Shown here one piece after another: positions 18,334 through 52,174 of a DNA stretch of 55,294 nucleotides (position 1 is its first letter; each line of letters begins with the position of its first letter). The DNA comes from a virus. Its lineage: Duplodnaviria; Caudoviricetes. A program made the translations under genes and the position numbers. The notes under the pieces are model-generated. The model saw only the letters and a list, made by a program, of their open reading frames with translations. It did not search any database and had not been told where the DNA came from. The stretch spans positions 1-55,294 of the IMG/VR virus record IMGVR_UViG_3300025658_000003, one strand, 5' to 3'.

Positions 18334-19593
18334 ATGGTTAAATTTCTAAGTAGTGGTAATATCACAATGGATAAGGTCTACATTCACCCTATATGGGAGA
18401 GTGAGGCTATACACCCTTGTATAGATGGGTTATCTATGTTATACATATACGACATAACCAACGATACAGAGCTTGTAATCAACTTAAAAAATATAGACAA
18501 CCATACAACCACATTAGATGAGTTTACCTTTAAATTCAACGAATCTTACGTTTACGATAATAAATCATTCTTAAACATTCTTCAGATAGATAACTCAGTT
18601 GATGCAGGATTAATAAAATATTTACAATCGAATTCCCAACTCAAATCTTCCCCAACACCAACACATACGTTCTACCATCGTAGATTCGGTGAGTTCAAAG
18701 GAGTTAACAATCTTATTCCAATATCTAAACATATAGAAATGGTAAGAGATGTGAGAAATGAGTTCCTTCAATATTACGATTTGGGTTGGGATTCGGATTG
18801 TGTGAAGAAATTTGAAAATTTCTATATTAAGCCGCTAAACTTAGTGGAACGAAATGGGATACATACTACAAATGGGTTAGAGTGGACTCAGTATCATCCA
18901 TATACAACAACTTCTCGTCCTTCAAACAATTATGGTGGTGTAAACTACGCTGCACTTAATAAAGATGATGGTAGTAGGGATAGATTTGTTAGTAGGTTCG
19001 ATGGGGGTAAATTAGTACAATTCGATTACGATGCTTATCACCCACGTATTATTGGTAAGATGGTAGGTGAACCAATTCCAATGGATGTGAGTGGACACCA
19101 AACCTTAGCAGATATGTATGGGGTTTCTTATGGTGAATCAAAAGGAATAACGTTTAGACAATTATATGGGGGAGTGCAAGAGGAATATCTACATATTCCT
19201 TTGTTCTCAAAAGTTTCACACAAAATAGATAAGATGTGGATGGAATTTAATCGTAGAGGTTATATAGAAACACCATTAGGTAGAAAACTATCAAAAGAGA
19301 ACCTAAACGATATGAACGCTAACAAACTATTTAATTATATGTTACAGGCAACTGAAACAGAGTTAAATATGAAGATTTTAAGTAAAGTAATGGAGTTTTT
19401 AGAAGATAAACGCTCAAAAATGGTTTTATATACTTATGATTCATATTTATTAGATATGCATTCTGATGAATTTGATAGTTTACAGAATTTAAAGATACTT
19501 ATAGAGGGGAACGGATTCCCTACAAAGATAGAACTCGGAGATAGTTATTCTAAAATGAATTCTATCGATATAGAAACAACGGATATAATATGA
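18334..19593 (+). CDS. Divergent family A DNA polymerase-like protein (start may be 18367)
   Basis: TTTSRPS, motif A FDYDAYHPR, motif B SKGITFRQLYG, NYMLQATE, motif C YTYDSYL. Confidence 0.8.
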   Translation: MVKFLSSGNITMDKVYIHPIWESEAIHPCIDGLSMLYIYDITNDTELVINLKNIDNHTTTLDEFTFKFNESYVYDNKSFLNILQIDNSVDAGLIKYLQSNSQLKSSPTPTHTFYHRRFGEFKGVNNLIPISKHIEMVRDVRNEFLQYYDLGWDSDCVKKFENFYIKPLNLVERNGIHTTNGLEWTQYHPYTTTSRPSNNYGGVNYAALNKDDGSRDRFVSRFDGGKLVQFDYDAYHPRIIGKMVGEPIPMDVSGHQTLADMYGVSYGESKGITFRQLYGGVQEEYLHIPLFSKVSHKIDKMWMEFNRRGYIETPLGRKLSKENLNDMNANKLFNYMLQATETELNMKILSKVMEFLEDKRSKMVLYTYDSYLLDMHSDEFDSLQNLKILIEGNGFPTKIELGDSYSKMNSIDIETTDII

Positions 19594-30518: not shown

Positions 30519-30550
30519 TTTGGATAATTGAAAAAAAAGTTGTATATTAG
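30519..30550 (+). promoter_or_regulatory. Promoter TTTG-N20-TATATTAG upstream of the HTH-mom-mom genes
   Basis: Same motif and spacer; implies a start at 30576. Confidence 0.75.
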
Positions 30551-30575
30551 TAATAAGTTACGAAAACGTAAGCGT

Positions 30576-30779
30576 ATGGCATTAAGAGGGGAATCACACC
30601 CAGCACATAAATTAACTGAAAAACAAGTTAAGAGTATCCGAAACCTATGGAAAGTGGGACACAGAAATGTTAGAGTATTAGCTCAAAACAATGGTGTATC
30701 TCCTGCTAACATCCGTAGAATTGTTAGGAACGAAACTTGGGTACATCTTTTAGTTGGAGAATTTGATAAATATCAGTAA
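30576..30779 (+). CDS. Small HTH DNA-binding protein
   Basis: RGESHPAHKLTEKQVKSIR...LAQNNGVSPANIRRIVRNETW resembles the stand-alone DNA-binding tail of HNH homing endonucleases. Confidence 0.7.
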   Translation: MALRGESHPAHKLTEKQVKSIRNLWKVGHRNVRVLAQNNGVSPANIRRIVRNETWVHLLVGEFDKYQ

Positions 30780-31537
30780 TGAAAGAAGAGGGAAAGAATT
30801 ATTGTGATGTATCAAAACTAACAGTAAGGAAGATTTCCAAATCCGTAGCTAAAGATATAATTGTAAAAAATCATTATTCACATCTATGGACTAAGGTATC
30901 TTACGCTATAGGTTTGTATATAGAAGATGATTCACATCAATTCTTCAATTCATCAGATAAGTTAATAGGTGTTGCGTGTTATGGTGACCCGATTGGTAGA
31001 TTAAGTGGGCAATCAATCACACCTTTATTAGATAGAACGGAAGTTTTAGAATTAGTAAGGGTATTTGTATTTGATGATTATGGTTCTAACATAGAGAGTT
31101 GGTTCTTAGGACAAACATTCCAATGGTTAAGAACAAATGTACCACAAATAAAAGGATTGATATCTTACTCAGACCCAAAAGAGGGTCATAACGGAACTAT
31201 CTACCAAGCAACTAATTGGCTGTATCAGGGTGATAAGTTAAGATTCAACGATAGTTGGAGTTTTAAGTTTAGTGAAGATGGTGAGTGGCAGCATGGTAGA
31301 ACGATATTTCCATATTATGGAACTAACAATCCTACTAAGATACAAGAACAGATTGATAAACCATTTTGGATTCGTAAAGAACCCCGTAAACATAGATACG
31401 TTTACATTCTTTCGAAGGGTGGTGAAAGAAGGAAGTTACTGAAAAGTTTAAAACATCCTATCTTAGAATATCCAAAAAGTGAAAACGAAATAGAATTAGA
31501 AATTAGAAAATTAGAACCAATTGAAAGAAGAGGGTAA
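30779..31537 (+). CDS. Mom-like (GNAT-fold) DNA modification protein 1
   Basis: KNHYSH, LELVRV, ESWFL, SYSDPKEGHNGTIYQATNWLYQG, KHRYVY. Confidence 0.82.
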   Translation: MKEEGKNYCDVSKLTVRKISKSVAKDIIVKNHYSHLWTKVSYAIGLYIEDDSHQFFNSSDKLIGVACYGDPIGRLSGQSITPLLDRTEVLELVRVFVFDDYGSNIESWFLGQTFQWLRTNVPQIKGLISYSDPKEGHNGTIYQATNWLYQGDKLRFNDSWSFKFSEDGEWQHGRTIFPYYGTNNPTKIQEQIDKPFWIRKEPRKHRYVYILSKGGERRKLLKSLKHPILEYPKSENEIELEIRKLEPIERRG

Positions 31538-32324
31538 ACATTATTGTGATTCCACTAAAGTTAGTGTAGCACCAATAGCTAAATCAATAGCAAAAGATAT
31601 AATCGTTAAGAAACATTATACTCACGCATGGACATCTTGTCGATACGCATTGGGTGTATATTATCAAACTGATGAAGTTGATATGTTTGGTAATTCTCAG
31701 AAACTAATTGGTGTAGCAATCTACGGATTCCCAGTCGGAGCAAAAGCACCCACATCAGTATGTGATGGATTAACAAAAGATAATATATTAGAATTAACTC
31801 GTTTATACTTAGATGATGGTTATGGTTCTAATATAGAAAGTTGTGCGTTGGGTAAAACATTCCAATGGATAAAAGATAACGATAAAAACATTAAAGTTCT
31901 ATTATCATACGCTGATAATGGACAAGGACACGTTGGTGGTATCTATAAAGCAACCAATTGGATATATCAGGGGTTATCAACGGATATAGCACTTATGCCT
32001 AATTGGGGTATATCACTATCTAAAGACCCGTATGGGTGGATTCATAGTAGAAGTGTTTATAACCTTTGGGGTAGTGGTAACTTAGAACATCTTCGTAGAG
32101 AGATAGGTAAAGATGGTTACACCGAATTTTGGAGAAGAGAAGAACCACCTAAACATAGGTACATTCAGATACTTGCTACCAATAAAAAAGAAAAGAAGGA
32201 TTTACATAAAAGATTAAAACATCCAACTAAACCTTATCCTAAAACGGCATCTGATTATAATACAGATATTATACATCATACAACATATGCACCAGAAGAA
32301 TCTAATGATATCAATTTTTGGTAA
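31521..32324 (+). CDS. Mom-like (GNAT-fold) DNA modification protein 2
   Basis: TTG start; KKHYTH, LELTRL, SYADNGQGHVGGIYKATNWIYQG, KHRYI. Confidence 0.82.
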   Translation: MKEEGKHYCDSTKVSVAPIAKSIAKDIIVKKHYTHAWTSCRYALGVYYQTDEVDMFGNSQKLIGVAIYGFPVGAKAPTSVCDGLTKDNILELTRLYLDDGYGSNIESCALGKTFQWIKDNDKNIKVLLSYADNGQGHVGGIYKATNWIYQGLSTDIALMPNWGISLSKDPYGWIHSRSVYNLWGSGNLEHLRREIGKDGYTEFWRREEPPKHRYIQILATNKKEKKDLHKRLKHPTKPYPKTASDYNTDIIHHTTYAPEESNDINFW

Positions 32325-32358
32325 TTGTTAATAACTTTCTAAAAAAAGTGCAAAAAAG

Positions 32359-32390
32359 TTTGGTGAATACAATAAATTGTTGTATATTTA
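32359..32390 (+). promoter_or_regulatory. Promoter TTTG-N20-TATATTTA, with TGTTAATAAC upstream (32326-32335)
   Basis: Same motif and spacer. Confidence 0.75.
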
Positions 32391-32399
32391 CATAGTAAA

Positions 32400-32472
32400 A
32401 GAGTTGATATCACTCTATAACGATATCAGAATTATAACTATGGGGTACAGGTATCACCCCAATAACGATACC
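32400..32472 (+). ncRNA. Two tandem putative H-type RNA pseudoknots in a 5' leader
   Basis: AGAGT-T-GATATC-ACTCT-ATAAC-GATATC and TGGGGT-ACA-GGTATC-ACCCCA-ATAAC-GATACC, with compensatory changes in both stems. Confidence 0.65.
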
Positions 32473-32492
32473 AAAACTTAAAACAAATAACA

Positions 32493-34010
32493 ATGGCATT
32501 TAAAAAATCAATCGATGCATCAGTTGGCGCAATGAAACTAAACCAACTTAGAAAATTATTTCCCTACATTCACGTAGACACAAACACATTACAAAGGTTA
32601 TTAGATGAATGGCCAGACCAAGTAAAAGCCGAACATATGAGGGCTGTATTTGAAGGACATTCCAATATTTACACAATTGTTCTAATTAGTATAGATGGTT
32701 GTTTAAATTATTGTAATAGTATTATAAATGAATATGAAAAAGATGATACTGAATATTCAGCAGTAGCTGAAACTATTGAGTACTTATCGAAGTTGAAATC
32801 AACAGGTAAACGTTACCTAAACATAGATGGTCAGCATAGAGTAAAAACTTATGAAGATTTTCTAAAATCTAAATTTACAATAGAAGCTTCGGTATTTGAT
32901 TATGTTGATAATGGTGATGGTGCACCAATAGCTTTTCAACTAAAGGGTGTTAAGTTCAAAGATATGCCTGAGCAGACCCAACAAACTATATTGGATACAC
33001 CACTTACATTGGTTATGATAAATAAAGCTACCTTACAGGATATGGTGGATGTAACTATTTACACTAACATTGGAGAACCTTGGAACAATCACGAACGAAG
33101 AATAATTATCCCATCTAAGTTTAATAGATTTCTGATTAATTATATGAATGATAATCCCTTAATGGAAGCGATGTTCAATAACACAAAAAACCTAGCAGGT
33201 AAATATTCTATTGTAAAGAAGGGTGATGCCTTAATGGTGGCTGAATGGGTTGGGTATCATTATAATAGTTTAAAAGGTGAAATATATAAATGGCCAGATG
33301 ATATTCAATTAAATACACAATCATCGGTTATTGGATTAGATGGGCATTCTACTTCTAAACTAAATAAATCAACATCACTTATTTCTAAATTGGTAGAGAT
33401 TGTAAACACAGCAAGTTCTGTAAAGTTTGAAAGAACTCTTTTGGATAATTTATTTATACTACTTACGGCATTAGATTCATCATCACATCCACTAAATTCA
33501 TTTCAGAAGAAAGTTAAGATTTCAAGTCCATCTAAATTTTTAGATTGGTTCTTAAAAATGGAATCAACACTTAGAGAACGTGATTTTTATATGAAGGATA
33601 AGGATGGTAATATCTATATTGATGACTTTGGTAATAAATCTACGAATTCGGAATCATTCAAAAGAAAGTGTGGAGCTAAGAAAGTTGATGATATTGAGAA
33701 GAGAAGTACTTTAATGATTCAGGAATTTAATAATGATTACAATGACTTATTTGCATCTGGTGTTGTATCTTTGGTAGACACAAACAATTTCACCAAAGCC
33801 GATAAATTAGAAGTAGCCATTGAAAATGACTTTAAAGATGCTAGTGGTAACGAATTTACTTTTGAAGAACTTATGGGTTCTAATTCTATAATAGAAGGAG
33901 ACCACCAAGAAGCTAGAGATGGTGGTAATTCTACATCTAAAGAAAACCTAACTCTTAGAACTAAGAGAGCAAATATTAGAAAATCTAACAAAAAAATGAT
34001 AAGTATATGA
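32493..34010 (+). CDS. DUF262/ParB-like plus C-terminal HNH-like protein (GmrSD-like architecture)
   Basis: NIDGQHR, TNIGEPW and C-terminal EGDHQEARDGGNSTSKENL...ANIRKSNK. Confidence 0.7.
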   Translation: MAFKKSIDASVGAMKLNQLRKLFPYIHVDTNTLQRLLDEWPDQVKAEHMRAVFEGHSNIYTIVLISIDGCLNYCNSIINEYEKDDTEYSAVAETIEYLSKLKSTGKRYLNIDGQHRVKTYEDFLKSKFTIEASVFDYVDNGDGAPIAFQLKGVKFKDMPEQTQQTILDTPLTLVMINKATLQDMVDVTIYTNIGEPWNNHERRIIIPSKFNRFLINYMNDNPLMEAMFNNTKNLAGKYSIVKKGDALMVAEWVGYHYNSLKGEIYKWPDDIQLNTQSSVIGLDGHSTSKLNKSTSLISKLVEIVNTASSVKFERTLLDNLFILLTALDSSSHPLNSFQKKVKISSPSKFLDWFLKMESTLRERDFYMKDKDGNIYIDDFGNKSTNSESFKRKCGAKKVDDIEKRSTLMIQEFNNDYNDLFASGVVSLVDTNNFTKADKLEVAIENDFKDASGNEFTFEELMGSNSIIEGDHQEARDGGNSTSKENLTLRTKRANIRKSNKKMISI

Positions 34011-35128
34011 AAGTATTAGTAATACCAAATTATACTAACTTTGGACAAGTAAAGGACATCAATAGGGATTCATTCCTATTGGTGTTCAAATCGTTCTTAG
34101 ATAATACCAAAATAGGAAAAGAATGGGAATGGATTTTACCATATCCTGGCGGACACCATAACCATCCGGGTATTATCAACCAGTTCGATTACCCAAATGT
34201 TAGTTTACGAAAGATGGATACAATAGAACCATTCCCACCTAAAATGAGGGTGGATTATCCATATAGGTTTTTTGATAAACTTATAGAAAAAGAAGAATCA
34301 AATTTCAATCTTATTTGGAGTCATCTTCCTGAGTGGACAAACAATTATGTAATCACTAGGATATATAATAAGAATCAACCGATTATTGGTTATTGCCATT
34401 GGAGTGAAATACCTGATAATGGAGCAAGAACTGATAACTCATTTTGGAATAATCTCAGAGGTATATTACAGATGAAAGTTTGTGGTGTAAATTCAAACTA
34501 TCAGAAAGGTGTTATCCTTAAAAACGCAGCTAAAGATTTTAAACCACATATCGTTGAGAAGTTGGATAAGATTATTCAACCTTGGTATTTAGGGTGTGAT
34601 TCAGCTACTCCATCAAATGGGTATGATGAGAAAACTATCGTATTCAATCATAGAGAAGGTGTTTATACTGGTTCTAAATGGTTCTTTGAAACTATGGATG
34701 AATTATGGAAAGAGCGACAAGATTTTAAAGTTTACATTACTCTAAAAGAAATGGATAAACCATATACAAAATACATTGGACACGCTGATAGGGATGTATA
34801 TCTTAATCAGTTAGCAAAATCACATTTTGGTGTTGGGTGTTTCGAAGGTTATTCAGCATGGAGTATGAGTGCTACTGATGGGTTGAGTAGAGGTGTACCA
34901 TATCTACTTCCAGATGGGTATTGTTATCCTGAAATGGTAGGTGATGATTATCCGTTATTATATAATGGTAGAACAGAATTCAAAGAAAAAGTAATTAAAC
35001 TATTAGATGGGGATATAAAAAGACCCGATGTAACAGGTATTGCAGAATCACTATTATGGGAGAGTCAACTTAAAAAGTGGGATATCGAAAATAATTTCGT
35101 GAAAAACGTTAGGATATTTGAAGAATAA
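34007..35128 (+). CDS. GT-B glycosyltransferase, possibly DNA-directed
   Basis: IVFNHR, WSMSATDGLSRGVPYLLP, YPEM; overlaps the DUF262-HNH stop and lies upstream of PolB. Confidence 0.65.
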   Translation: MKVLVIPNYTNFGQVKDINRDSFLLVFKSFLDNTKIGKEWEWILPYPGGHHNHPGIINQFDYPNVSLRKMDTIEPFPPKMRVDYPYRFFDKLIEKEESNFNLIWSHLPEWTNNYVITRIYNKNQPIIGYCHWSEIPDNGARTDNSFWNNLRGILQMKVCGVNSNYQKGVILKNAAKDFKPHIVEKLDKIIQPWYLGCDSATPSNGYDEKTIVFNHREGVYTGSKWFFETMDELWKERQDFKVYITLKEMDKPYTKYIGHADRDVYLNQLAKSHFGVGCFEGYSAWSMSATDGLSRGVPYLLPDGYCYPEMVGDDYPLLYNGRTEFKEKVIKLLDGDIKRPDVTGIAESLLWESQLKKWDIENNFVKNVRIFEE

Positions 35129-35140
35129 TTCGTATATTGT
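35109..35140 (+). promoter_or_regulatory. Promoter TTAG-N20-TATATTGT
   Basis: Same spacer; variant -7 element. Confidence 0.6.
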
Positions 35141-35333
35141 GGTAACATTCAGTTTTAAAGGTAAAGAGTATCAAATAGTACCAGAGGAATCTAAGGTACT
35201 AACCGAACCTGTAAGACCTGCTGAAAGTTTACTTAGAGATTTTGAATATTGTAAAGAGGTTGGTGATTACCAAACAATAAAGAATAGAATAACAAACGGA
35301 CTCCATTGGGGTTGGATTAAAGAACTTAAATAA
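35139..35333 (+). CDS. Hypothetical protein (start uncertain: GTG 35139 or TTG 35118)
   Basis: Fills the gap before PolB. Confidence 0.55.
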   Translation: MVTFSFKGKEYQIVPEESKVLTEPVRPAESLLRDFEYCKEVGDYQTIKNRITNGLHWGWIKELK

Positions 35334-38617: not shown

Positions 38618-39826
38618 ATGAATTTTTGGGACACAGAACCGGCTAAGCCAGTATTTGATTACGATATTCAGAGAAGAGAATTAATCGAAAATATGGATTA
38701 CCTTGCATCAATGACTGTTGAGGAACAAACCCTTTACAAAAAGTGGGTTGAGTTGCAAGAACCTAATATGATTAGAGATAAATCTTTGATATCTGAATTG
38801 TATGATACACAGTGGATGCCGAAGGATATTAATAATTTGGAACAAACTATCAAAGAGATTGAAGAGTTAGAACCTTATGTTGAAATCTTAGATGACCCCA
38901 AAGAATCTACTAAGTGGACTTATGTTAGAAAGATGATTCATACTATGGGATTTACCGCTAATCCTGGTCGTAACGTTAAGATTAATGTTAAGGATAGGAA
39001 GAGTGGTAAACTCTTAGGACAGATTTCATTAGCATCCGATGTAACATCTATGGCAGTTAGAGATAACTATATTGGGTGGAGTAAGGATAATAAGTTTAAA
39101 GATGGAAAACTGAATCATACTACAATAGCATCTACAATTGTATGTACTCAACCATTAGGGTATAATTTTTTAGGTGGGAAGTTGGTTGCTATGATGACTA
39201 CTGTTCCTGAAATTAGAAACCTTTGGAAAGAAAAGTATGGACAAACTCTAATCGCAGTTGGTACAACATCGTTATATGGAATACATTCTCAGTACAATGG
39301 TATTCCACATTTCAAAACACTCGGAGAATCCGCTGGTAAAATATCTTTGAAACCTGATGATAAGTTCTATGAACCTTGGCATCAATGGATTAAAGAAAAC
39401 AGAGCAGAGTGGTACGAAACTGCGATTACGAATGAAAGAATCCGTAATGGTAAGAGTATGGGTGTAGCAAGTGGGCCTGTGAGTGGTATCAAACAAAAGA
39501 TTCTTGGACAGATATTCAAAGAATGTGGTATCAAACAATCAGAGTATCATCATGGTTTTAAAAGAGGTGTATATCTCGCTATGATGTATGAGAATGGACC
39601 TGAGTATCTTCGTAAGGAGATTGAAGAGGATGAGTTGGTGATGAAAAAGAAGTTTACTGAAGGTGTTGATTACATCAATCGATGGTGGAAGAAGAAAGCT
39701 ATCAAACGATACACTAAACTACATTCAGAAGGTAGATTAAAACCAGAGCACTTATTTTACATCGATGCTATTGGTATGAATTGGGAACAAATGAAAGCTA
39801 AATATTTAAAAGAAGTCGGAAGATAA
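38618..39826 (+). CDS. DruA/DUF4338-like protein
   Basis: PGRN...GKLLGQISL...RDNYIGW, QPLGYNFLGGKLVA, TTSLYG..SQYN, LGESAG. Confidence 0.7.
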   Translation: MNFWDTEPAKPVFDYDIQRRELIENMDYLASMTVEEQTLYKKWVELQEPNMIRDKSLISELYDTQWMPKDINNLEQTIKEIEELEPYVEILDDPKESTKWTYVRKMIHTMGFTANPGRNVKINVKDRKSGKLLGQISLASDVTSMAVRDNYIGWSKDNKFKDGKLNHTTIASTIVCTQPLGYNFLGGKLVAMMTTVPEIRNLWKEKYGQTLIAVGTTSLYGIHSQYNGIPHFKTLGESAGKISLKPDDKFYEPWHQWIKENRAEWYETAITNERIRNGKSMGVASGPVSGIKQKILGQIFKECGIKQSEYHHGFKRGVYLAMMYENGPEYLRKEIEEDELVMKKKFTEGVDYINRWWKKKAIKRYTKLHSEGRLKPEHLFYIDAIGMNWEQMKAKYLKEVGR

Positions 39827-40781: not shown

Positions 40782-40952
40782 ATGGCAACATCACAACAAT
40801 TATTCGAACAGATAAAAGATTTATTTGTAGAATTTGAAACAGAACACAATGGTACAACTAAAGCTGCTAAAGGTAGAGCAAGAAAAGCTATTGGAGAAAT
40901 CAAAAAGTTAGTAACTGATTACAGAAAAGTATCTGTAGAAGAAAGTAAGTAA
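40782..40952 (+). CDS. Histone H1-like Hc1-family protein (not in ORF track)
   Basis: 56 aa: MATSQQLFEQIKDLF...TKAAKGRARKAIGEIKKLVTDYRKVSVEESK. Confidence 0.75.
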   Translation: MATSQQLFEQIKDLFVEFETEHNGTTKAAKGRARKAIGEIKKLVTDYRKVSVEESK

Positions 40953-40955
40953 GAT

Positions 40956-41225
40956 ATGGGAAAAGGTAAAGGAAAAGTAATCGGTATGGGTGGTTCTAAA
41001 CAAGGACCACCACAAGCCCAAATGAAATTAGACCCAACAAAACTCCCAACAGTAACTTGTGAGAATTGTGATTCTATCTTTTGGGAAGAAGTAACAATGT
41101 TTAAAGAAGTTCCAGCGGTACAATCACCAAACGGACAGAAATCAATGTTACCTATTCCTGTAGTTAGATGTGCAGAGTGTGGGCATGTATCGGAGAAGTT
41201 TTTACCTAAAGAATTACTACCTTAA
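40956..41225 (+). CDS. Small zinc-ribbon protein
   Basis: CENC...CAECGH. Confidence 0.7.
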   Translation: MGKGKGKVIGMGGSKQGPPQAQMKLDPTKLPTVTCENCDSIFWEEVTMFKEVPAVQSPNGQKSMLPIPVVRCAECGHVSEKFLPKELLP

Positions 41226-41954: not shown

Positions 41955-42365
41955 ATGGCAGAAATATTAAAAGAAGCAAAAACAAAAGTAATTCACAGAG
42001 GTGAACGTACTATAAAAGAAACTAAAGAAGAAGATGCAATTCAGTATTGTGAAAGATTGTATCCTGAAACTACAAAGGAGTTCCAAAAGATATTAGATGA
42101 AATGTATGAAACGTTTTGTAAGAAGCAGCGTAACTACGGACCAGGTAACATCTCAGTTGGAACAAACTTAGAATCAGATGAGGATATAAAATTATCTTTA
42201 GTGGGGTTATGGTTTAGAATGAACGATAAAATTCAGAGATTAAAACAATTAGTTGTTTTAGGTCAACCTGATGAAGTAGGTGAAAACATCCAAGATACTT
42301 ATGAAGATTTAAGTGTTTATGGAGTGATTGCACAAATCGTTCAAAGAAAAAAGTGGGCTAAATAA
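41955..42365 (+). CDS. Nucleotide-modification-associated domain 1 (Nmad1/DUF1599-like) protein
   Basis: KKQRNYG...RMNDKIQRL...ENIQDTYEDLSVYGVIA. Confidence 0.75.
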   Translation: MAEILKEAKTKVIHRGERTIKETKEEDAIQYCERLYPETTKEFQKILDEMYETFCKKQRNYGPGNISVGTNLESDEDIKLSLVGLWFRMNDKIQRLKQLVVLGQPDEVGENIQDTYEDLSVYGVIAQIVQRKKWAK

Positions 42366-42670
42366 TGTCAACTTATCGGCCGCTACCACCACAATTAACA
42401 ATATCACAATCTGGAATAGAAGGTTTGGGTTTATTCGCAGTAGAAGATATCAAATCGGATACTGATTTAGGATTAACACATATAGTTGATGAAACAAAGC
42501 TAAATGGGTTCATTAGAACACCATTAGGTGGGTTTATCAATCATAGTGAAACTCCCAATCTACAAATACTCAAACAATCAAATGGTAATTACCATATAGG
42601 AACATTATCTGATATCAAAATAGGTGATGAGTTAACTTTAAAGTATAATTTATATACTCCAAAAGCTTAA
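42365..42670 (+). CDS. Minimal SET-domain methyltransferase
   Basis: GLGLFA, FINHSETPN, DIKIGDELTLKY. Confidence 0.85.
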   Translation: MSTYRPLPPQLTISQSGIEGLGLFAVEDIKSDTDLGLTHIVDETKLNGFIRTPLGGFINHSETPNLQILKQSNGNYHIGTLSDIKIGDELTLKYNLYTPKA

Positions 42671-42684
42671 CAATTGTTAATAAC

Positions 42685-42751
42685 TTAACAATTATTTAAT
42701 ATTAAAATTTGGTAAATCCAGTAAAAAGTCGTATATTAGTACTGTAATAAG
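42685..42751 (+). promoter_or_regulatory. 67-bp repeat copy 2, containing promoter TTTG-N20-TATATTAG (42708-42739)
   Basis: Near-identical to 17771-17837. Confidence 0.85.
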
Positions 42752-42766
42752 AAATGATATAACTCT

Positions 42767-43714
42767 ATGAAAGAATCAAAAATAAGTAACGTATTTACCT
42801 TTGGGGTAAAAGAACCTAACGATGGTGATGTTAAGGTATCGTACTCCCAATATACAATGTATGCGAATTGCCCACATCAATGGAAGTTGAATTATATGGA
42901 TGGTAATCGTTCATTTGACCCATCAATCCATTTGGTATTTGGTACTGCTATGCACGAAACTCTACAGAGTTGGTTGGATACGTTATACAATGATTCAATA
43001 GATGAGGCATCTAAAATCGATTTAGGTAAGATGTTATACGAATGTATGTTAGTAGAATACAAAAAGATGAGAGAACAGACTGGAGTAGAATTCAGTAACC
43101 CATCTCAGATGGAAGAGTTCTTAGAAGATGGTATAGCTATACTTAATGAAGTTACTAAGAATAGGGTTGATTACTTCAATACTCGTCATATGAATTTAGT
43201 GGCTATTGAATTACCAATATACTCCAAAGCATTAGATTCTCACAACGTGTATATGAGAGGATTCTTAGATTTAGTATTCGAAGATACATACGAAAACAAA
43301 CTACAGATTTGGGATATCAAAACATCTACCAATGGTTGGAACAAGTGGATGAAAGCTGATAAAACTAAAACAGCACAATTAGTGTTGTATAAGAAGTTCT
43401 TATCAGAACAATTTGGTTATCCATTAGATAGGATTAGTACAAAGTATTTTATTGTAAAACGTAAGTTAATGGAAGGTATGATGTTCGCTCAGAAGAGAGT
43501 TCAAACATTCGAACCAGCGAATGGTAAACCAACATTAAATAAGATTACTAAGAGTTTCGAAGATTTCGTTAGAAACTCATTCAATGAAGATGGTTCATAC
43601 AGAACCGAATCAGAGTATCCTGCTATGGCTGGTAAGAACAATAAGAATTGTAAGTGGTGTCCATTCAAAAATGATTTTGATAGTTGTCCCAAAGAAAATA
43701 GACATAAGGTATGA
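42767..43714 (+). CDS. PD-(D/E)xK nuclease (Cas4/AddB-like, probable Fe-S ligands)
   Basis: SYSQ...NCP, GTAMH, GFLD...WDIKT, QLVLY, CKWCPF...C. Confidence 0.85.
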   Translation: MKESKISNVFTFGVKEPNDGDVKVSYSQYTMYANCPHQWKLNYMDGNRSFDPSIHLVFGTAMHETLQSWLDTLYNDSIDEASKIDLGKMLYECMLVEYKKMREQTGVEFSNPSQMEEFLEDGIAILNEVTKNRVDYFNTRHMNLVAIELPIYSKALDSHNVYMRGFLDLVFEDTYENKLQIWDIKTSTNGWNKWMKADKTKTAQLVLYKKFLSEQFGYPLDRISTKYFIVKRKLMEGMMFAQKRVQTFEPANGKPTLNKITKSFEDFVRNSFNEDGSYRTESEYPAMAGKNNKNCKWCPFKNDFDSCPKENRHKV

Positions 43715-44638: not shown

Positions 44639-46024
44639 ATGGCAAAAAATAAAAAGAAACCTCTCATACTTTTGTTATCAGATGATATGAGATTACATAG
44701 TGGTATAGCCACAATGTCTAAGGAGATTGTACTTAATACATCCCACAAATATGATTTTATACAAGTCGGAGCAGCTGTTAAACACCCTGATGAGGGTAAG
44801 TTTTTCGATGTATCAGATTCAGTAAATCAAGAAGCTGGTATTGATAATGCAAATGTTAAAATAATTCCTCAAAGTGGATATGGAAACCAACAATTAATCA
44901 GAAATTTAATCTCTACTGAAAACGTAGATGCAATCCTACACTTTACAGACCCACGTTTTTGGGATTGGTTGTATGCTATGGAAGATGAGATTCGTAAACA
45001 CATCCCTATTATGTATTATAACATTTGGGATGATTTACCAGACCCACAATGGAACGCACCATTTTATGGAAGTTGTGATTTACTATTAGGTATATCTAAA
45101 CAAACCTATGGTATCAATAAAAGGGTAATGGATAAGTTTGATATGCCTATGGAAGATTGGCAAATCCAATATGTACCACATGGAGTTTCTGATAAGTTCA
45201 AACCTTTAGGTGAAACTGAAGAAGTATTGAAGATGAAAGAATCTTTAGGAATTGCTGATAAAACGTTTATACTATTTTGGAACAACCGAAATATTCGTAG
45301 GAAGAATCCAGGTGATGTGGTACTTGCCTACAAAGAGTTTTGTGATGGGTTATCAAAAGAAGAAGCTAAAGATGTAGTTTTACTGATGCATACAAATCCA
45401 GTTGATTCAAATGGTACTGATTTGCCAGAGGTAATTAAAAATATGTGTCCTGATTACGATGTATTATTTACAGGAAAAACCTTCAATACAGATGAGTTAA
45501 ACCTTATATATAATGTAGTTGATGTTACAATTAATATGGCATCTAACGAAGGGTTTGGATTAACAACATGTGAATCTGTAAATGCTGGAACACCTATAAT
45601 TGTAAACGTAACTGGTGGGATGCAAGACCAATGTAACTTTACTATTGATGGTAAGTACATTACACCCGAACAATATGTAGAAATAGGTTCACTATCCAAT
45701 AGGAAAGAATTACCACATAATTTAAGTTGGGGTAGTTGGGTAAATCCAATATGGCCAACTAATCGTTCACTACAAGGTTCTCCAGCAACACCATACATAT
45801 TTGATGACAGATGTTCTTTTGAAGATGCAGCTAAATCAATTAGACAGTGGTATGATACAGAACCACAACGTAGAAAAGAATGTGGAATGGAAGGTTCAGA
45901 GTGGATGAAAGGAAATGAAAGTAATATGACATCTAAGCGTATGGGTAATAGATTTATCGAATGTATTGATAGTTGTTTTAATAATTGGAAACCAAAAAAT
46001 GAGTTAGTATTATGGAAGATATAA
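44639..46024 (+). CDS. GT-B (GT4-like) glycosyltransferase
   Basis: SGIATMS, VPHG, NRNIRRK, NEGFGLTTCES..AGTP. Confidence 0.88.
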   Translation: MAKNKKKPLILLLSDDMRLHSGIATMSKEIVLNTSHKYDFIQVGAAVKHPDEGKFFDVSDSVNQEAGIDNANVKIIPQSGYGNQQLIRNLISTENVDAILHFTDPRFWDWLYAMEDEIRKHIPIMYYNIWDDLPDPQWNAPFYGSCDLLLGISKQTYGINKRVMDKFDMPMEDWQIQYVPHGVSDKFKPLGETEEVLKMKESLGIADKTFILFWNNRNIRRKNPGDVVLAYKEFCDGLSKEEAKDVVLLMHTNPVDSNGTDLPEVIKNMCPDYDVLFTGKTFNTDELNLIYNVVDVTINMASNEGFGLTTCESVNAGTPIIVNVTGGMQDQCNFTIDGKYITPEQYVEIGSLSNRKELPHNLSWGSWVNPIWPTNRSLQGSPATPYIFDDRCSFEDAAKSIRQWYDTEPQRRKECGMEGSEWMKGNESNMTSKRMGNRFIECIDSCFNNWKPKNELVLWKI

Positions 46025-47340
46025 AAAAGTTTTGTGTAGTTAGTTGCCCAATATCCACTAGGAGTGGTTATGGCGCTAGAAGTAGAGATTTCGTTAGAGC
46101 GTTAATTGAAGCTAGGCCTGATTGGGATGTAAAAATACTATCTCAACGTTGGGGGAATACTCCAATGGATGCGTTAGTAGTTGGAGTTGATGATGATTTA
46201 CTAAGTAGAATTGTTGTAGAAAAAACTGAAACAAAACCAAACGTTTGGATTCAGATTACAGTTCCGAATGAATTTCAACCTGTAGGTGATTATAACATTG
46301 GTGTAACTGCTGGTGTTGAAACTACTATTATGCCTCCTGAGTGTTTAGAGGGTATGAATCGTATGGATAAGGTTTTAATCTCATCCGAATTCGGTAAAGA
46401 AGTTTCATTGAAAAGTGTATATGATAAGAAGGAAGAGAAAACAGATAAACTTATTAGTAAGTTACAGTTAACAACTCCAATTGAAGTATTATTCGAAGGT
46501 ATAAACTTAGATGTATATGATAACAAAAAACCACCAGAGCCTCGAATTGATAAAATACTAGAAGATGTGAAAGAATCATTTTGTTTCTTATTTGTAGGAC
46601 ATTGGTTAAAGGGTAACTTTGAGCAGGATAGAAAGAATGTGGGTGGAATGATTAGAGTGTTTTTAGAAGCATTTAAAGGTAAGAAAAACCCACCAGCATT
46701 GATTTTAAAAACTAACAAAGGTAGTAGTTCATTAACAGATAGAGTTTATACTAGAAAAATGATACAAGCTATTAAAGATTCAGTAGATAGTAATAGATTA
46801 CCAAATATTTATCTACTAAACTCAGATTTAACTGATGCAGAAGTAAACGCATTATATAATCACTCAAAGGTAAAAGCTCATTTATCATTTACGAGAGGTG
46901 AGGGATTTGGTAGACCTTTATTGGAAGCTACAATTAGTGGTAAACCAATGGTTGTATCAGCTTGGAGTGGGCATGTTGATTTCTTAAATAAAGATATGAT
47001 TAATCTAATTCAAGGTGGATTAACAAAAGTACACCCATCTGCAGCAGATGAAAAGTTCTTATTAAAAGAAGCAAGTTGGTTTCAAATAGATTATTCGATA
47101 GCTGGTGGTACTATGAAGGATATTGTATCTAATTATAAACCATACTTAGAGAAATCTCGTAAACATAGACAATATACCAAAGATAACTTTACGTTTGAAC
47201 ATATGCGTGAACTATTAAGTAATTATCTGAAAGAGGCTGATGATGCTAAGGTATCACCAAAACAGGTTGGATTACAATTACCTAAGTTAAAAAAGAAAAC
47301 TCAAAGTATAGAGTTACCTAAATTAAAGAAAGTTAAATAG
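46012..47340 (+). CDS. GT-B glycosyltransferase
   Basis: SGYG, DRKN, GEGFGRPLLEA, WSGHVDF. Confidence 0.88.
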   Translation: MEDIKKFCVVSCPISTRSGYGARSRDFVRALIEARPDWDVKILSQRWGNTPMDALVVGVDDDLLSRIVVEKTETKPNVWIQITVPNEFQPVGDYNIGVTAGVETTIMPPECLEGMNRMDKVLISSEFGKEVSLKSVYDKKEEKTDKLISKLQLTTPIEVLFEGINLDVYDNKKPPEPRIDKILEDVKESFCFLFVGHWLKGNFEQDRKNVGGMIRVFLEAFKGKKNPPALILKTNKGSSSLTDRVYTRKMIQAIKDSVDSNRLPNIYLLNSDLTDAEVNALYNHSKVKAHLSFTRGEGFGRPLLEATISGKPMVVSAWSGHVDFLNKDMINLIQGGLTKVHPSAADEKFLLKEASWFQIDYSIAGGTMKDIVSNYKPYLEKSRKHRQYTKDNFTFEHMRELLSNYLKEADDAKVSPKQVGLQLPKLKKKTQSIELPKLKKVK

Positions 47341-47852
47341 TGGCATTTTACAATACACATCTAAGAAAAACATCAGACCCTACTCCAATTACGAAAAGTA
47401 AAATGGAGAGGGGTATGGTGGTTAAAGTAAAATATAAAGCACAAGGTAAAACACCTAAATTGTATTTGATATTGGTTCTTCAACCAAAATGGCCAAATTC
47501 AACCGAAGGTAAATTACATGGGTTATCATTAGATAACATACCACCACAAAAGTTTTTAGAGTTTGCAAAAGTGTACAAAGAAGTAATTTCTGAATCATCA
47601 AAGGTAAAGAAATTAGATTTAGCTAAGATTCAAATTACTGAAGCTTCTAAAGTATTTTATACATCAGAAATTAAAACATCTAAACAATTAAAAAGTTCAT
47701 ACAGAACATTCAATCTATTAGATATACAATCTATTCAATCAGTTAATTATGATTGGGGTAAATTTGATAAAGTAGCAGCTAGGGATGAGAGAAGAAAGCA
47801 GTTGGAAGAGGAAGCTAAGGAACGTAGAGATAATAACGATGTAACTAACTGA
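47340..47852 (+). CDS. Hypothetical protein (weak resemblance to gp2-like DNA end protectors)
   Basis: GTG start; LHGLSLDNIPP and SYRTF motifs. Confidence 0.5.
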   Translation: MAFYNTHLRKTSDPTPITKSKMERGMVVKVKYKAQGKTPKLYLILVLQPKWPNSTEGKLHGLSLDNIPPQKFLEFAKVYKEVISESSKVKKLDLAKIQITEASKVFYTSEIKTSKQLKSSYRTFNLLDIQSIQSVNYDWGKFDKVAARDERRKQLEEEAKERRDNNDVTN

Positions 47853-47877
47853 TAATCAACCAGTTGCTATGATAGTG
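47842..47877. repeat. Second copy of the palindromic IHF-like element
   Basis: taactaactgataatcaaccagttg followed by ctatgatagtg; aatcaaccagttg (47854-47866) fits WATCAANNNNTTR. Confidence 0.55.
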
Positions 47878-47928
47878 GGGGCAAATCACCAATAGTTATA
47901 ACTTTTAGTGAAAATAATCTCTATAATG

Positions 47929-47960
47929 TTTGTTTTTTAGAACATTTTTTTGTATATTAG
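47929..47960 (+). promoter_or_regulatory. Promoter TTTG-N20-TATATTAG
   Basis: Same motif and spacer. Confidence 0.7.
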
Positions 47961-47978
47961 TATCAATAATAAAACATT

Positions 47979-48605
47979 ATGAAAATAAGTTACGCTATAA
48001 CAGTATGTAATGAGTTTGTAGAAATACAAAAACTCATACCATTTCTTTTAGAACATAAAAGACATGAAGATGAAATCGTAGTTCTATACGATTCTAAAAA
48101 TGGTTCTAAATCCATAGAACAATACCTAAGAGCTAAATCCGTAAATGGTGAGTTTAGTTGGCATAAAGGAGAGTTCGATGGACACTTTGCTAATTGGAAA
48201 AACAAACTTACGGATTTATGTAGTGGTGATTGGATATTCCAAATCGATGCAGATGAGATTCCAAATGAGATACTTATAGAGAATTTACATGATATCTTAA
48301 CGAAGAACACTACAGTCGTTGATGTTGTATTAGTTCCAAGAGTAAATACAGTTGAAGGATTAACTGATGAACATATCAAAAAGTGGGGATGGAATGTAGA
48401 TGATAAAGGTTGGGTTAATTGGCCTGATTTTCAATATAGATTATATAAGAAATCACCAACCATCAGATGGAAGAATAATGTGCATGAGGTATTAGAAGGA
48501 TTCAATACAATATCACATCTACCAATAGATGAGGATTTATCACTATATCATCCAAAAGAAATTAAAAGACAAGAACAACAAAACAAATATTACGATACAT
48601 TATGA
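47979..48605 (+). CDS. GT2-like glycosyltransferase
   Basis: ISYAITVCNE, WIFQIDADE, WPDFQYRL, VHE. Confidence 0.85.
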   Translation: MKISYAITVCNEFVEIQKLIPFLLEHKRHEDEIVVLYDSKNGSKSIEQYLRAKSVNGEFSWHKGEFDGHFANWKNKLTDLCSGDWIFQIDADEIPNEILIENLHDILTKNTTVVDVVLVPRVNTVEGLTDEHIKKWGWNVDDKGWVNWPDFQYRLYKKSPTIRWKNNVHEVLEGFNTISHLPIDEDLSLYHPKEIKRQEQQNKYYDTL

Positions 48606-49666
48606 AAAAAACAGCATTAGTATTAGGTGGTGGTGGTTTCATCGGAGGCCACTTAGCAAAAAGATTAAAAGAAGATGGATATTGGGTAAGGGTTGTTGAT
48701 ATCAAATCAGAACATGAGTTTTGGAAACATACCGATATGTGTGATGATTATGTATCTGGTGATTTAAGAGACCCTCAAATAGTATCTAATGTTTTTAGAT
48801 TAGAACACCATAATGATATTATTCAACCATATTCATTCCATAAGCAACCATTTACTGAGATATCATCATTTGATGAGGTTTATCAATTAGCAGCAGATAT
48901 GGGTGGAGCTGGTTATATATTTACTGGAGATAATGATGCTAACATAATGCACAATTCAGCATTAGTAAACTTAAATACAGTGCTAGAAGCAAGTAATACT
49001 AAAGTTGGTAGAATATTCTACTCATCTTCAGCTTGTATGTATCCTGAAAGAAATCAATTAGATGCAGATAACCCAAATTGTGAAGAATCATCAGCATATC
49101 CTGCGAATCCTGATTCAGAGTATGGTTGGGAAAAGTTATTTAGTGAAAGATTATTCTTATCGTTTATGAGAAACTATGGATTAGATGTAAGGGTAGCTAG
49201 ATTTCATAATATATTCGGACCTATGGGAACTTGGGATGGTGGTAAAGAAAAAGCACCAGCGGCTATGTGTAGAAAAGTAGCACAATCTGATGATATGGTA
49301 GAAGTATGGGGTGATGGATTACAGACACGTTCATTTCTATATATAGATGATTGTGTTGAAGCTATGTTACGATTTATGAGGCAAGATGAATTCGTTGGAC
49401 CTGTAAACATTGGTTCTGAAGAAAAAGTTACTATTAATCAATTAGCTCAAATGGCTATTGATATATCTAAAAAAGATGTTAAACTATACAATATAGATGG
49501 TGATGATTTCATAGATGAATACGGATTCCCATGTCCAGTTGGTGTAAGAGGTAGAAATTCTGATAATAAACTTTACAAAGAAAAGATGGGGTGGGAAGTT
49601 TCAATGCCATTAATAGATGGTATGAAGAAAACATACGAATGGATTAACAAACAAGCAAATGGGTAA
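48602..49666 (+). CDS. NAD-dependent epimerase, GDP-mannose 3',5'-epimerase-like
   Basis: GGGGFIG, LAADMGG, SSSACMYPE, YGWEK, KEKAPAAMCRK, GVRGRNSDN. Confidence 0.88.
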   Translation: MKKTALVLGGGGFIGGHLAKRLKEDGYWVRVVDIKSEHEFWKHTDMCDDYVSGDLRDPQIVSNVFRLEHHNDIIQPYSFHKQPFTEISSFDEVYQLAADMGGAGYIFTGDNDANIMHNSALVNLNTVLEASNTKVGRIFYSSSACMYPERNQLDADNPNCEESSAYPANPDSEYGWEKLFSERLFLSFMRNYGLDVRVARFHNIFGPMGTWDGGKEKAPAAMCRKVAQSDDMVEVWGDGLQTRSFLYIDDCVEAMLRFMRQDEFVGPVNIGSEEKVTINQLAQMAIDISKKDVKLYNIDGDDFIDEYGFPCPVGVRGRNSDNKLYKEKMGWEVSMPLIDGMKKTYEWINKQANG

Positions 49667-50423
49667 GAAAACACTACTATTCACAACCATTGGTAAAATG
49701 AGTGAGGAATCTCATAGAATCTCTACAGAAGCATTCTCTTCTTGGAAGGGGTTCGATGTGGTGGTTTTTGGTGAAGAATTTCACGAATCATTATGTGAAG
49801 AGTATGGGTTCACATTAGATACGGATTATGAACGTAGTGAATTTGGGTTACCAATAGTTAGAGGGTTGTTTAAAGCGGCTGAGAGATATACTGGTTATGA
49901 TGTATATTGTTACTTAAATGCAGATATTAAATTTCCATCATCACCACAATACATAATTGATTTAATAGAAGATGATAACTTTCTATTAGTTGGGCAGAGA
50001 ATGGATACATATCCTGATGAGCGTGTTGATAAGTTACACGTAGCTGGTGGTATTGATTACTTCTTTTATACTCCTAATTTTTGGGATTTGAGTAAAATGC
50101 CGGATTTTAATAAAGCTAGGGGTAGATACGACCACTGGTTGATGGGGAATGCATATACAAATGGGAATGGGAATGTGATTGATTTAACAAATGAATGGAT
50201 ACCAATACACCAAGACCCAAAAGTAAGAACCGATGGTAATTTTGTGAATCTATTTAATTCAGGTACTCATTTGAGTAGAGCATACCAGACATTTAGAAAT
50301 AACTATTACTTTGCAAAAGCACGATTGCATGGGCAAACTGATATGGCTAAGTTCTATGTTGAAGATGGTATGGTTAAACAAAGAGTGAATGAAGTAAAAA
50401 ATGAGTTTGGTATAATATTTTAA
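49659..50423 (+). CDS. Putative GT-A glycosyltransferase-like protein
   Basis: GLPIV, YLNADI, GIDYF, GRYDHWL; cluster context. Confidence 0.55.
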   Translation: MGKKTLLFTTIGKMSEESHRISTEAFSSWKGFDVVVFGEEFHESLCEEYGFTLDTDYERSEFGLPIVRGLFKAAERYTGYDVYCYLNADIKFPSSPQYIIDLIEDDNFLLVGQRMDTYPDERVDKLHVAGGIDYFFYTPNFWDLSKMPDFNKARGRYDHWLMGNAYTNGNGNVIDLTNEWIPIHQDPKVRTDGNFVNLFNSGTHLSRAYQTFRNNYYFAKARLHGQTDMAKFYVEDGMVKQRVNEVKNEFGIIF

Positions 50424-50434
50424 TAACTAAAAAT

Positions 50435-51514: not shown

Positions 51515-52169
51515 AGTATTATTTACAAGTTACCTTTGTGATAAAGAAGATGTATTACTTCAGGAAATATTAAATGAGTGGAGAACACTTAATCCTGGTT
51601 ATGAAGTATTATACTTTTCAGATTCAGATGTAAACGAATTCTTCAAAGATACTCCACAATATAAAACATATAGTAAAATGAAAAATGGAGTAGCTATAGC
51701 AGATTTCTTTAGAATATGTTACATAAATAAATTTGGTGGATATTGGTTTGATTTAGATGTACAGCCAATCAGTTTAAATCTTCCCGAAAGTGGTGATGTA
51801 CATTTATTCGATGCTGGGTTCGGAAATATTAGTTATATGTTTATCGGTGGTAATCCAAATCAAAAACTATTCAATGAGGTAATTGGTATAGTAGAAAAAA
51901 ACATCAACGATAATATTCCAATCAAAAAAGGACATGTTATTGATATTACAGGCCCGAGAGTAATCCAAAACATAATTTGTGGGATGTTTGGTGTTAGAAA
52001 CCAAGATGGGTGGTTAATCGGTGATATGCACCCAAGAATTGGTTTTGAAGGCGAAGCTTATGAATTTGTTTATACAAAAGTACCATTTCCAAAATTAAAA
52101 ACAGATAAATACCAAAAATTACAACAAAAATATAAACGTGAAAATTATCAAGTTTATAACTATATTTAA
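51507..52169 (+). CDS. GT32-like DxD glycosyltransferase
   Basis: WRTLNPGY, ADFFRICYINKFGGYWFDLD, ITGP. Confidence 0.85.
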   Translation: MNKVLFTSYLCDKEDVLLQEILNEWRTLNPGYEVLYFSDSDVNEFFKDTPQYKTYSKMKNGVAIADFFRICYINKFGGYWFDLDVQPISLNLPESGDVHLFDAGFGNISYMFIGGNPNQKLFNEVIGIVEKNINDNIPIKKGHVIDITGPRVIQNIICGMFGVRNQDGWLIGDMHPRIGFEGEAYEFVYTKVPFPKLKTDKYQKLQQKYKRENYQVYNYI

Positions 52170-52174
52170 GAATT

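Follow-up and report, generated by a model that had tools for sequence, protein, structure and literature searches.

A tandem pair of Mom-family genes and an exchangeable putative nuclease-glycosyltransferase cassette among the replication genes of an uncultured T4-like phage from marine samples

The 55,294-base IMG/VR virus record IMGVR_UViG_3300025658_000003 (hereafter the window, the whole stretch of DNA that was analysed; completeness estimate about 28%) carries at 30519-35128 five open reading frames (ORFs) that lie immediately upstream of the DNA polymerase gene PolB, as an initial annotation had described. We interpret them as two promoter-delimited modules within the replication region. 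The first, which is conserved, consists of a promoter-like motif (P1), a gene for a small helix-turn-helix (HTH) protein of 67 amino acids (aa), and the genes for MomA and MomB, two anciently duplicated Mom-family GNATs. In the second, a further motif (P2) precedes the genes for a ParB/DUF262-like plus HNH protein (ParB-HNH) and a glycosyltransferase (GT), and the module combines a constant, phage-only GT-B enzyme with a variable gene ahead of it. A tentative scenario, to which we give slightly less than an even chance, is that the Moms mark the phage DNA and that the exchangeable nuclease-GT cassette acts like a restriction-modification pair. The GT, probably together with a DruA-type GNAT, would add a sugar-bearing mark to the phage DNA, and the nuclease would read the status of DNA and cut unmarked molecules, namely the host chromosome or co-infecting phages. 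The sequences show which genes are present and how their domains are related, which Mom residues are kept, where promoter-like motifs and mosaic boundaries lie and which genes occur together; all of the chemistry, the sugar acceptor and the polarity of the nuclease we infer. The initial annotation had taken the five genes as one system, which does not hold: HTH-MomA-MomB is a conserved operon, and the ParB-HNH gene is swappable and is gone in the closest relative.

Exchange of genes between MomB and PolB

From the 591 relatives that a Mom-anchored search gave, the best 80 loci were retained, and the related loci mapped number 107. The closest relative, L039, encodes proteins that are 99% (ribonucleotide reductase (RNR) beta), 95% (MomB), 91% (PolB) and 99% (a DruA-like protein) identical to those of the window, and blastn aligns it collinearly at 92% as far as the end of MomB at position 32324. 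The alignment resumes at 35313, and no match lies between the two points. In place of the 3 kb of the window it has a glycosyltransferase of 447 aa that is 30% identical, and the nuclease is absent. L003, a distant relative, has a backbone at 67-69% and a PolB protein at 57%, yet 32340-35061 is shared at 88.9% (blastn) and its nuclease protein is 96% identical to that of the window. L041 and L046 share only 33987/33994-35138, containing the GT (86-90%) and not the nuclease, and the shared block ends at 35138. These comparisons delimit an exchangeable cassette at 32325..35312 (+ strand) that includes P2, the nuclease and GT genes, and a doubtful gene, orf71. Environmental contigs from runs X4 and X15 part from the window at 32325 and 32368, and the cassette junctions coincide with promoter-like elements. 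Two further joints are weak, one in run X7 from 32388 to 34004 with only 26 letters on one side, and one from 30549 to 35333 with only 30 letters.

The initial annotation had proposed neighbourhood conservation as a check, and the outcome differs along the locus: thioredoxin-HTH-MomA-MomB is retained across the clade, but the stretch from MomB to PolB is hypervariable. The PolB proteins of the clade are themselves of two divergent types, 76-91% and 53-58% identical to that of the window, and the phage backbone is therefore itself mosaic. In these alignments the ParB-HNH gene behaves as a horizontally exchanged accessory in a hypervariable slot and not as a fixed partner of the Moms.

The contents of the slot were catalogued in those Mom-anchored loci whose MomB-to-PolB interval is complete; there are 42 of them, and at 97% nucleotide identity they reduce to 35 distinct loci. 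The ParB-HNH family of the window occupies four of these, a second, Pfam-positive DUF262-HNH family (C4) two, and other large proteins of 404-682 aa, falling into seven BLAST clusters, sixteen; seven loci have the GT only and six have no GT. By hhalign, C3 and C5 are relatives of one another (97.8%), and none of the families beyond DUF262-HNH is related by hhalign to the ParB-HNH family of the window. Families C3, C5, C12, C13, C15 and C16 have no Pfam or PADLOC match, and a protein-atlas search with the C3 protein gave no usable match. The C16 (A6) profile has no match among solved structures; its invariant DG..GHTR and PD...EIK motifs suggest, at motif level, a ParB-like domain joined to a PD-(D/E)XK nuclease. 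C6 has a weak homing-endonuclease match and, by eye, a GIY-YIG-like N-terminus. The cassette is a natural experiment in which the GT is constant and at least nine upstream protein families are swapped, several with ParB, HNH, PD-ExK or GIY-YIG signatures. This swapping suggests that lytic phages bear modular restriction-modification-like weapons of their own, and the slot yields a set of uncharacterised nuclease and sensor families.

A large partner is always accompanied by an adjacent GT of the same family (22 of 22 distinct loci), as against 7 of the 13 loci without a partner; counted from the nuclease side, the GT lies directly downstream in 22 of 24 evaluable loci. The occurrence of the GT alone but never of the nuclease alone is the pattern of a restriction-modification system, and is the main new support for the idea in the initial annotation that a modification is combined with a nuclease, although the polarity of that nuclease is only inferred. 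No GT was found elsewhere in the contigs that lack it here, records that are just 20-36% complete, so that this negative is uninformative. The Mom, nuclease and GT genes are also represented in contigs of two RNA libraries, each from a separate study, and some of these contigs show no difference from the window. This hint of expression is weak because DNA carry-over is possible. Contig depth over the nuclease is below that of its flanks in two DNA runs; depth cannot rank genes and was not used.

The patchy distribution of the nuclease gene, the sharp junctions at gene ends and the HNH motif would also be expected of a selfish mobile nuclease, a free-standing homing-type endonuclease that cuts genomes without it and has no role in modification. 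The 96% identity of the L003 protein, in a genome whose PolB is 57% identical, points the same way, as does a GIY-YIG/NUMOD3 homing endonuclease within the same interval of L022 (L022:1075-1965, between MomB and the ParB-HNH gene). We nevertheless consider this explanation quite improbable. A protein of 505 aa with a conserved ParB-type nucleoside triphosphatase (NTPase) domain and no NUMOD match is unlike known homing endonucleases, the family stays intact at 40-99% identity over long vertical stretches, and most other slot occupants have no homing-endonuclease signature. The gene also has its own promoter-like motif and is coupled to the GT.

The Mom pair and its promoter-like motifs

MomA (30779..31537, + strand) and MomB (31521..32324, + strand, with a TTG start) overlap by 17 nucleotides (nt), and both match the Pfam Mom family PF25680 over its full length, from profile position 2 to 202 of 202. 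MomA scores 154.3 bits and MomB 154.1 bits, with a cut-off of 27.1 bits; MomA also matches PHROG 1384 (4.5e-52). The call of two Mom paralogues is thus confirmed, and the two proteins are 46% identical. According to PMC13219725, Mu Mom transfers glycine from Gly-tRNA(Gly) to adenine N6 in double-stranded DNA, followed by rearrangement to the carbamoylmethyl group (N6-carbamoylmethyl-dA), and is a GNAT dimer with an HTH-like insertion. Seven of the eight Mu Mom residues checked (the equivalents of H58, Y59, R111, S124, D149, Y159 and W181) are kept in both proteins, and the Mu dimer residue W48 is not retained in either. Because all of the Mu-required residues except R151 are kept, the two genes plausibly modify phage DNA. 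By analogy with Mu, MomA is a probable aminoacyl-tRNA-dependent adenine N6 DNA modification enzyme and a DNA-marking function is likely for the pair. The earlier claim that the phage marks its own DNA with an unusual base is plausible from the residues. In the scenario favoured here the Moms would most likely move an aminoacyl group from charged tRNA onto adenine N6 of replicated phage DNA, with MomA and MomB probably serving different sequence contexts or donors.

Thioredoxin-HTH-MomA-MomB recurs widely in the kept loci of uncultured aquatic T4-like phages; some relatives have one Mom only and three loci (L085-L087) have three in a row. In cultured phage records Mom is found as single copies, at 319 places in 319 records. 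A quick maximum-likelihood tree of 131 rows groups the second-position Moms as one clade (SH-aLRT 97) with the first-position copies outside it, which argues that the duplication is old and that both copies have been retained. A noisy literature search, over a limited collection of papers, gave no description of paired or tandem Moms, and in PMC13219725 the word 'paralog' is absent and 'tandem' occurs only in the reference list. Mom-type modification has been explained only recently for Mu (PMC13219725), and an abundant marine phage group here retains a stable, diverged pair of such proteins, which points to unexplored donor or sequence specificities.

The HTH gene is immediately upstream of the first Mom in nearly all loci with a Mom pair, and in the window it overlaps the start of MomA by 1 nt. 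It was first read as an ORF at 30528-30779 from a TTG codon. The true start is probably the ATG at 30576, giving a gene at 30576..30779 (+ strand; 67 aa), because the TTG lies within P1 and all 14 aligned relatives begin at the equivalent methionine; this start and 24 invariant columns are conserved across the 14. The HTH assignment is borne out by PHROG 517 ('HTH DNA binding protein', 6.1e-6), and no Pfam match was found. The ORF also matches PHROGs 6156, 20467 and 59, which are the C-termini of HNH/homing endonuclease families, and judging by these matches the protein is a stand-alone version of the HTH seen at the C-termini of phage HNH and homing endonucleases. It may serve as a regulator or as a DNA-binding helper.

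Two promoters had been placed before the HTH and nuclease genes, and at motif level both are upheld, since copies of a specific motif, TT[TA]GG-N18-GTATATT, precede each gene. P1 (TTTGG-N18-GTATATT; 30519..30548, repeat families D4/D5) stands before the HTH-MomA-MomB operon, P2 (32359..32388), of the same motif family, before the nuclease gene, and P3 (35109..35138) before PolB and within the 3' end of the GT gene; all three are on the + strand. The window contains ten 30-nt copies (17794, 18299, 22446, 22624, 25638, 30519, 32359, 35109, 37857 and 42708), all on the + strand and lying between genes or at gene starts, compared with 0.125 expected from 200 Markov-1 simulations. The motif is sigma-70-like and may alternatively be read as TTGGTA-N17-TATATT, and TTGTTAATAACTT is found 34-46 nt upstream of three copies (17794, 32359 and 42708). 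A generic sigma-70 scan of the window, in contrast to the specific motif, showed no enrichment (23 seen versus 30.3 expected), and neither did the T4 late-promoter word TATAAATA (13 versus 12.8). The ORF orf71 (35118..35333, + strand) is doubtful as a gene because its TTG start falls within P3 and tblastn finds no match to it among the 107 related loci mapped; it has no family match either.

The ParB-HNH protein, the glycosyltransferase and their possible roles

The 505-aa protein encoded at 32493..34010 (+ strand) has a ParB/DUF262-like NTPase-sensor domain at about residues 25-230, a helical middle and a C-terminal HNH at about residues 465-500. Its motifs are QR..W (34-40), DGQHR (112-116), D470 H471, N485 and N494. 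Alone, it has no direct match in Pfam, NCBIfam or solved structures. The PADLOC NsnA model, which is the ParB-DUF262 domain according to the Menshen paper (PMC12065111), matches residues 107-227 at 5.4e-9. Among 19 family members DGQHR is invariant and the C-terminal D-H...N...N is conserved, the HNH catalytic motif being kept in 18 of them; the Pfam families matched are HNH_4 (4 of 19), HNH (3 of 19) and, weakly, GmrSD_N (1 of 19, 0.013). All six weak solved-structure matches of a wider family profile are HNH nucleases, and the nearest protein-atlas clusters bear HNH and/or GmrSD_N. A DUF262-HNH relative in the same slot of L072 matches HNH at 9.3e-11 and GmrSD_N at 33.3 bits (cut-off 33.2), and hhalign joins the 505-aa family to the Pfam-positive GmrSD_N+HNH slot proteins with 97.3% probability (E 1.9e-11, 358 columns). 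DUF1524 is matched neither by the protein nor by its family, the C-terminus being a classical HNH instead. The NsnA model, the invariant motifs and the hhalign result bear out the initial DUF262-HNH call, and at the level of sequence the protein is GmrSD-like in architecture. In L012 the ParB-HNH gene (L012:984-2503) lies in two ORFs of 346 and 156 aa, reflecting either a frameshift or an assembly error. A Menshen system was considered and set aside: by its definition (PMC12065111) the genes after NsnA encode an ABC-ATPase, NsnB, and an effector, NsnC, and here the NsnA-like gene is trailed by the GT and then PolB.

The GT gene (34007..35128, + strand; 373 aa) overlaps the nuclease gene by 4 nt; this and the two overlaps in the Mom operon are as first described. 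The GT-B call is upheld through the family, of which 227 relatives were found: Glycos_transf_1 (PF00534) is matched by 16 of 38 members, at best 1.3e-14, and the family profile matches 16 listed chains of solved structures, 7qsg at 8.7e-7 and the others at E up to 1. All but one of the 16 are glycosyltransferases, solved GT4 enzymes among them. The protein can accordingly be described, through its family only, as a divergent GT4-like GT-B enzyme. No family member was found when 50,697 records of cultured phages were searched. A search of 185,579 species genomes gave six matches, all on short contigs (1.7-14.5 kb) of metagenome-assembled genomes, and five of the six contigs bear other genes of the phage module beside the match; by these counts the family is phage-only. 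A C-terminal extension of about 80 aa, which the window GT lacks, is present in many members and matches a winged-helix model in 1 of 38. The linkage of the GT to Mom is confined to this clade. In more distant phages the GT adjoins a DruA-type GNAT, and relatives at about 30% identity still lie in replication modules beside PolB, the clamp and DruA-like GNATs.

The window has such a DruA-like (DUF4338, GNAT) gene at 38618..39826 (+ strand), and its Pfam match (PF14236, 75.7 bits) and PADLOC DruA match (2.2e-16) uphold its earlier identification. Homologues stand directly beside the GT in L018-L020, L023, L066, L067, L095 and L123, at 0.6 kb from it in L122 and at about 3 kb in L120; in L026 and L027 the homologue precedes the nuclease-GT pair. 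The DruA-like protein is a probable GT partner, and the recurrent pairing of a GT with a DruA-type GNAT is a testable lead on the function of DruA. DruA-like genes are present in 31 cultured records, among them those of the Pelagibacter phages HTVC008M and Mosig and of many Synechococcus phages, and occupy the replication modules of pelagiphages and cyanophages; in S-SCSM2R the gene is flanked by those for clamp-loader subunits and bears the annotation 'methylcarbamoylase mom'. PMC10853773 assigns DUF4338 to the GNAT domains. A GNAT fold common to Mom and the DruA-like protein has a literature basis only (PMC10853773 and PMC13219725), and hhalign between them, on shallow alignments, gave a non-significant probability of 3%. 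A noisy literature search on DUF4338 together with Mom, over a limited collection of papers, gave no description of the present locus.

ThyA looks like a canonical thymidylate synthase in four of five complete relatives (146-271 kb) and Tet_JBP matches none of the five, its control likewise giving no match anywhere; with that reservation no hydroxymethyl-pyrimidine acceptor is in sight. The acceptor of the GT could be a group installed by a GNAT, or the GT could act on something other than DNA. The former idea can be extended to a composite and hitherto undescribed hypermodification of adenine, in which Mom and/or a DruA-type GNAT installs an amino-acid-derived group, the GT-B enzyme glycosylates it, and interchangeable ParB-type nucleases, the poison half of the cassette, destroy DNA without the glyco-adduct. 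The sugar might, for example, be joined to the nitrogen of the carbamoylmethyl amide, in a reaction akin to the N-glycosylation of asparagine. We regard this extension as speculative and give it little credence; if true, the phage DruA homologues would be the first handle on DruA in Druantia. The latter idea, that the GT glycosylates a protein or small molecule and owes its location to replication-module synteny only, is somewhat unlikely in our estimate. Its nearest solved relatives use inositol phosphate, trehalose or lipid-linked sugars, the lack of a visible hydroxymethyl-pyrimidine route would fit, and a separate sugar-enzyme cluster is present in the window (44639-53383). Against it stand the restriction of the family to phages, its persistence in replication modules even at distant identity, and the C-terminal extension of many members with its winged-helix match.

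Several observations weigh against the scenario in which the Moms mark the DNA and the cassette acts as a restriction-modification pair. GmrSD_N (PF03235) gives no match to the 505-aa protein of the window at E up to 10. The DndB/DGQHR family, tried as a candidate, has only the pentapeptide in common with it (TIGR03187 at 13.1 bits versus a cut-off of 58.85; PF14072 none at E up to 10). Characterised GmrSD-type enzymes cleave modified, not unmodified, DNA, which is the opposite of the polarity that the initial annotation had assumed. In place of R151, an essential residue of Mu Mom, MomA has K and MomB has G, and the closest cultured Mom homologue, P12002L, differs here too. The GT of the window alone has no match to any glycosyltransferase family, and no hydroxymethyl-pyrimidine pathway that could supply its acceptor was seen in the complete relatives (again with the silent Tet_JBP control). 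The co-occurrence of partner and GT (Fisher p = 0.001, uncorrected for relatedness) is drawn from related loci with counts that are not independent. In the count from the nuclease side, the two loci without an adjacent GT, L029 (in a cyanophage-like context) and L030, have ParB-HNH relatives at 21-25% identity. GT identity does not track partner type: it is 90% where the partner is of family C3 but 76-81% where it is ParB-HNH as in the window, which argues against tight co-evolution of nuclease and GT. The always-with-GT pattern could reflect insertion sites for recombination and not function.

Two further explanations assign the ParB-HNH protein another role. As a Type IV-like weapon it would, in the manner of GmrSD and BrxU, cut competitor phages carrying a foreign modification and spare the phage's own DNA, the slot would be a small defence island, and the GT would be independent. 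Homology of its architecture to DUF262+HNH proteins, a hypervariable and horizontally exchanged slot with several ParB- or nuclease-type occupants, and the failure of GT identity to co-vary with the partner all agree with this. We judge it unlikely, as it leaves unexplained why the partner is never without a GT (22/22) and why the two genes are translationally coupled through their 4-nt overlap, and no target modification can be named. As a modification cofactor, by comparison with DndB/DpdB, a ParB-like protein would load or regulate Mom or the GT on DNA and would be no weapon. DGQHR is the DndB-type variant of the motif, and ParB-like proteins are listed among phage GT neighbours in bioRxiv 10.1101/2023.12.21.572611. 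This role is very unlikely: the gene is absent from the closest relative, which retains both Moms and a GT, and is elsewhere replaced by unrelated genes, the DndB and DGQHR models do not match, and the HNH catalytic motif is conserved in nearly the whole family.

Genome setting and comparison with known systems

Every gene of the window is on the + strand, and GC content is 30-38% per 2-kb interval. Its T4-like genes include some for the tail, namely those for sheath, tube and a gp15-like protein, and a replication and nucleotide module with gp32, a RecA/UvsX-like protein, FEN, a DnaB-type helicase, RNR beta and alpha, MazG, thioredoxin, PolB, sliding clamp and clamp loader; the MazG-like neighbour reported earlier was recovered in a PHROG search. 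Near-identical DNA is present in 20 public marine or estuarine runs from 14 studies. No cultured phage is close at the DNA level, the best match covering 7% of the query at 65% identity. The nearest Mom in a cultured phage is that of a Polaribacter phage (47%), and the closest cultured DruA-like genes are those of Pelagibacter phages (31-32%). The phage is an uncultured marine T4-like myovirus and the locus sits in its replication region.

Among the other genes, we note that the Nmad1-like neighbour is seen only weakly, as a match of 41955-42365 to PF07659 (1.3e-4, 22.6 bits, below the cut-off of 25). After this weak Nmad1/DUF1599 ORF (region 41955-42670) come a 101-aa SET-domain protein (1e-8) and a PD-(D/E)XK nuclease (42767-43714), and the group at 41955-43714 could be a further nucleic-acid or protein modification module. 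A 56-aa ORF at 40782-40952, among the clamp-loader genes and followed by a zinc-ribbon ORF (40956-41225), resembles the chlamydial histone H1-like Hc1 (PF07432, 2.8e-10, 40.4 bits, above cut-off). The sugar-enzyme cluster comprises two GT4-type proteins (one also matching 'GT4-conflict'), two GT2, an NAD-dependent epimerase/dehydratase and a Gly_transf_sug protein. Several ORFs without an assignment are interspersed, and a glycan built by the cluster may be destined for DNA, the virion or the host surface. An ORF of 419 aa at 18334-19593 has a sub-threshold DNA_pol_A match (1.5e-5, 24.5 bits versus 34.3) although a full PolB is present. A 1077-aa ORF contains at least 14 tandem 45-nt (15-aa) repeats at 11746-12600, and the 971-aa ORF preceding it has a 156-nt tandem duplication (10369-10680); both are probably structural or fibre proteins.

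Among known systems, GmrSD, BrxU and SspE, which serve bacteria as Type IV or modification-sensing defences, are likewise, by comparison with PMC12065111, single polypeptides with an N-terminal ParB-type domain (QR..W, DG..R), a helical middle and a C-terminal His-Me nuclease. The present protein differs in being encoded by a lytic phage, in having a classical HNH in place of DUF1524 and DGQHR in place of DGQQR, and in its coupling to a GT. The viral DNA glycosyltransferases of the 5-hydroxymethylcytosine and 5-hydroxymethyluracil pathways share the setting of a phage GT-B gene with DNA polymerase, clamp and ParB-like genes as its neighbours, as bioRxiv 10.1101/2023.12.21.572611 lists them, but no TET or hydroxymethylase partner was found here (Tet_JBP control silent). 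The DruA-like protein matches the Pfam model of Druantia DruA above its cut-off; unlike in Druantia, no DruB-E genes are nearby and its neighbours are the clamp and clamp loader. MomA and MomB belong to the same Pfam family as Mu Mom over their full length, keep most key residues, include the HTH-like insertion region and, as in Mu, follow a small overlapping gene. In contrast to Mu, there are two diverged tandem paralogues with R151 replaced and W48 lost, the upstream gene encodes an HTH protein and not the zinc-finger Com, and the genes belong to a lytic T4-like phage, where they sit in the replication module.

In T4 itself, glucosyl-hydroxymethylcytosine protects the phage DNA, and EndoII and EndoIV degrade unmodified host DNA. 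The logic proposed here is alike, and so is the placement in a T4-like replication and nucleotide-metabolism region with RNR, MazG and thioredoxin adjacent; at the sequence level, by contrast, there is no relation to alpha- or beta-GT or to denA or denB, no hydroxymethylase is seen in the complete relatives, and the nuclease is swappable. T4-type phages reportedly have hyperplastic regions flanked by promoter-stem-loop cassettes, as Arbiol et al. are said to have described in 2010. The interval between MomB and PolB resembles these in that variable genes are swapped between core genes and the junctions fall at repeated, promoter-bearing intergenic elements; it differs in its promoter motif and in that the slot holds one large nuclease-type gene together with a constant GT.

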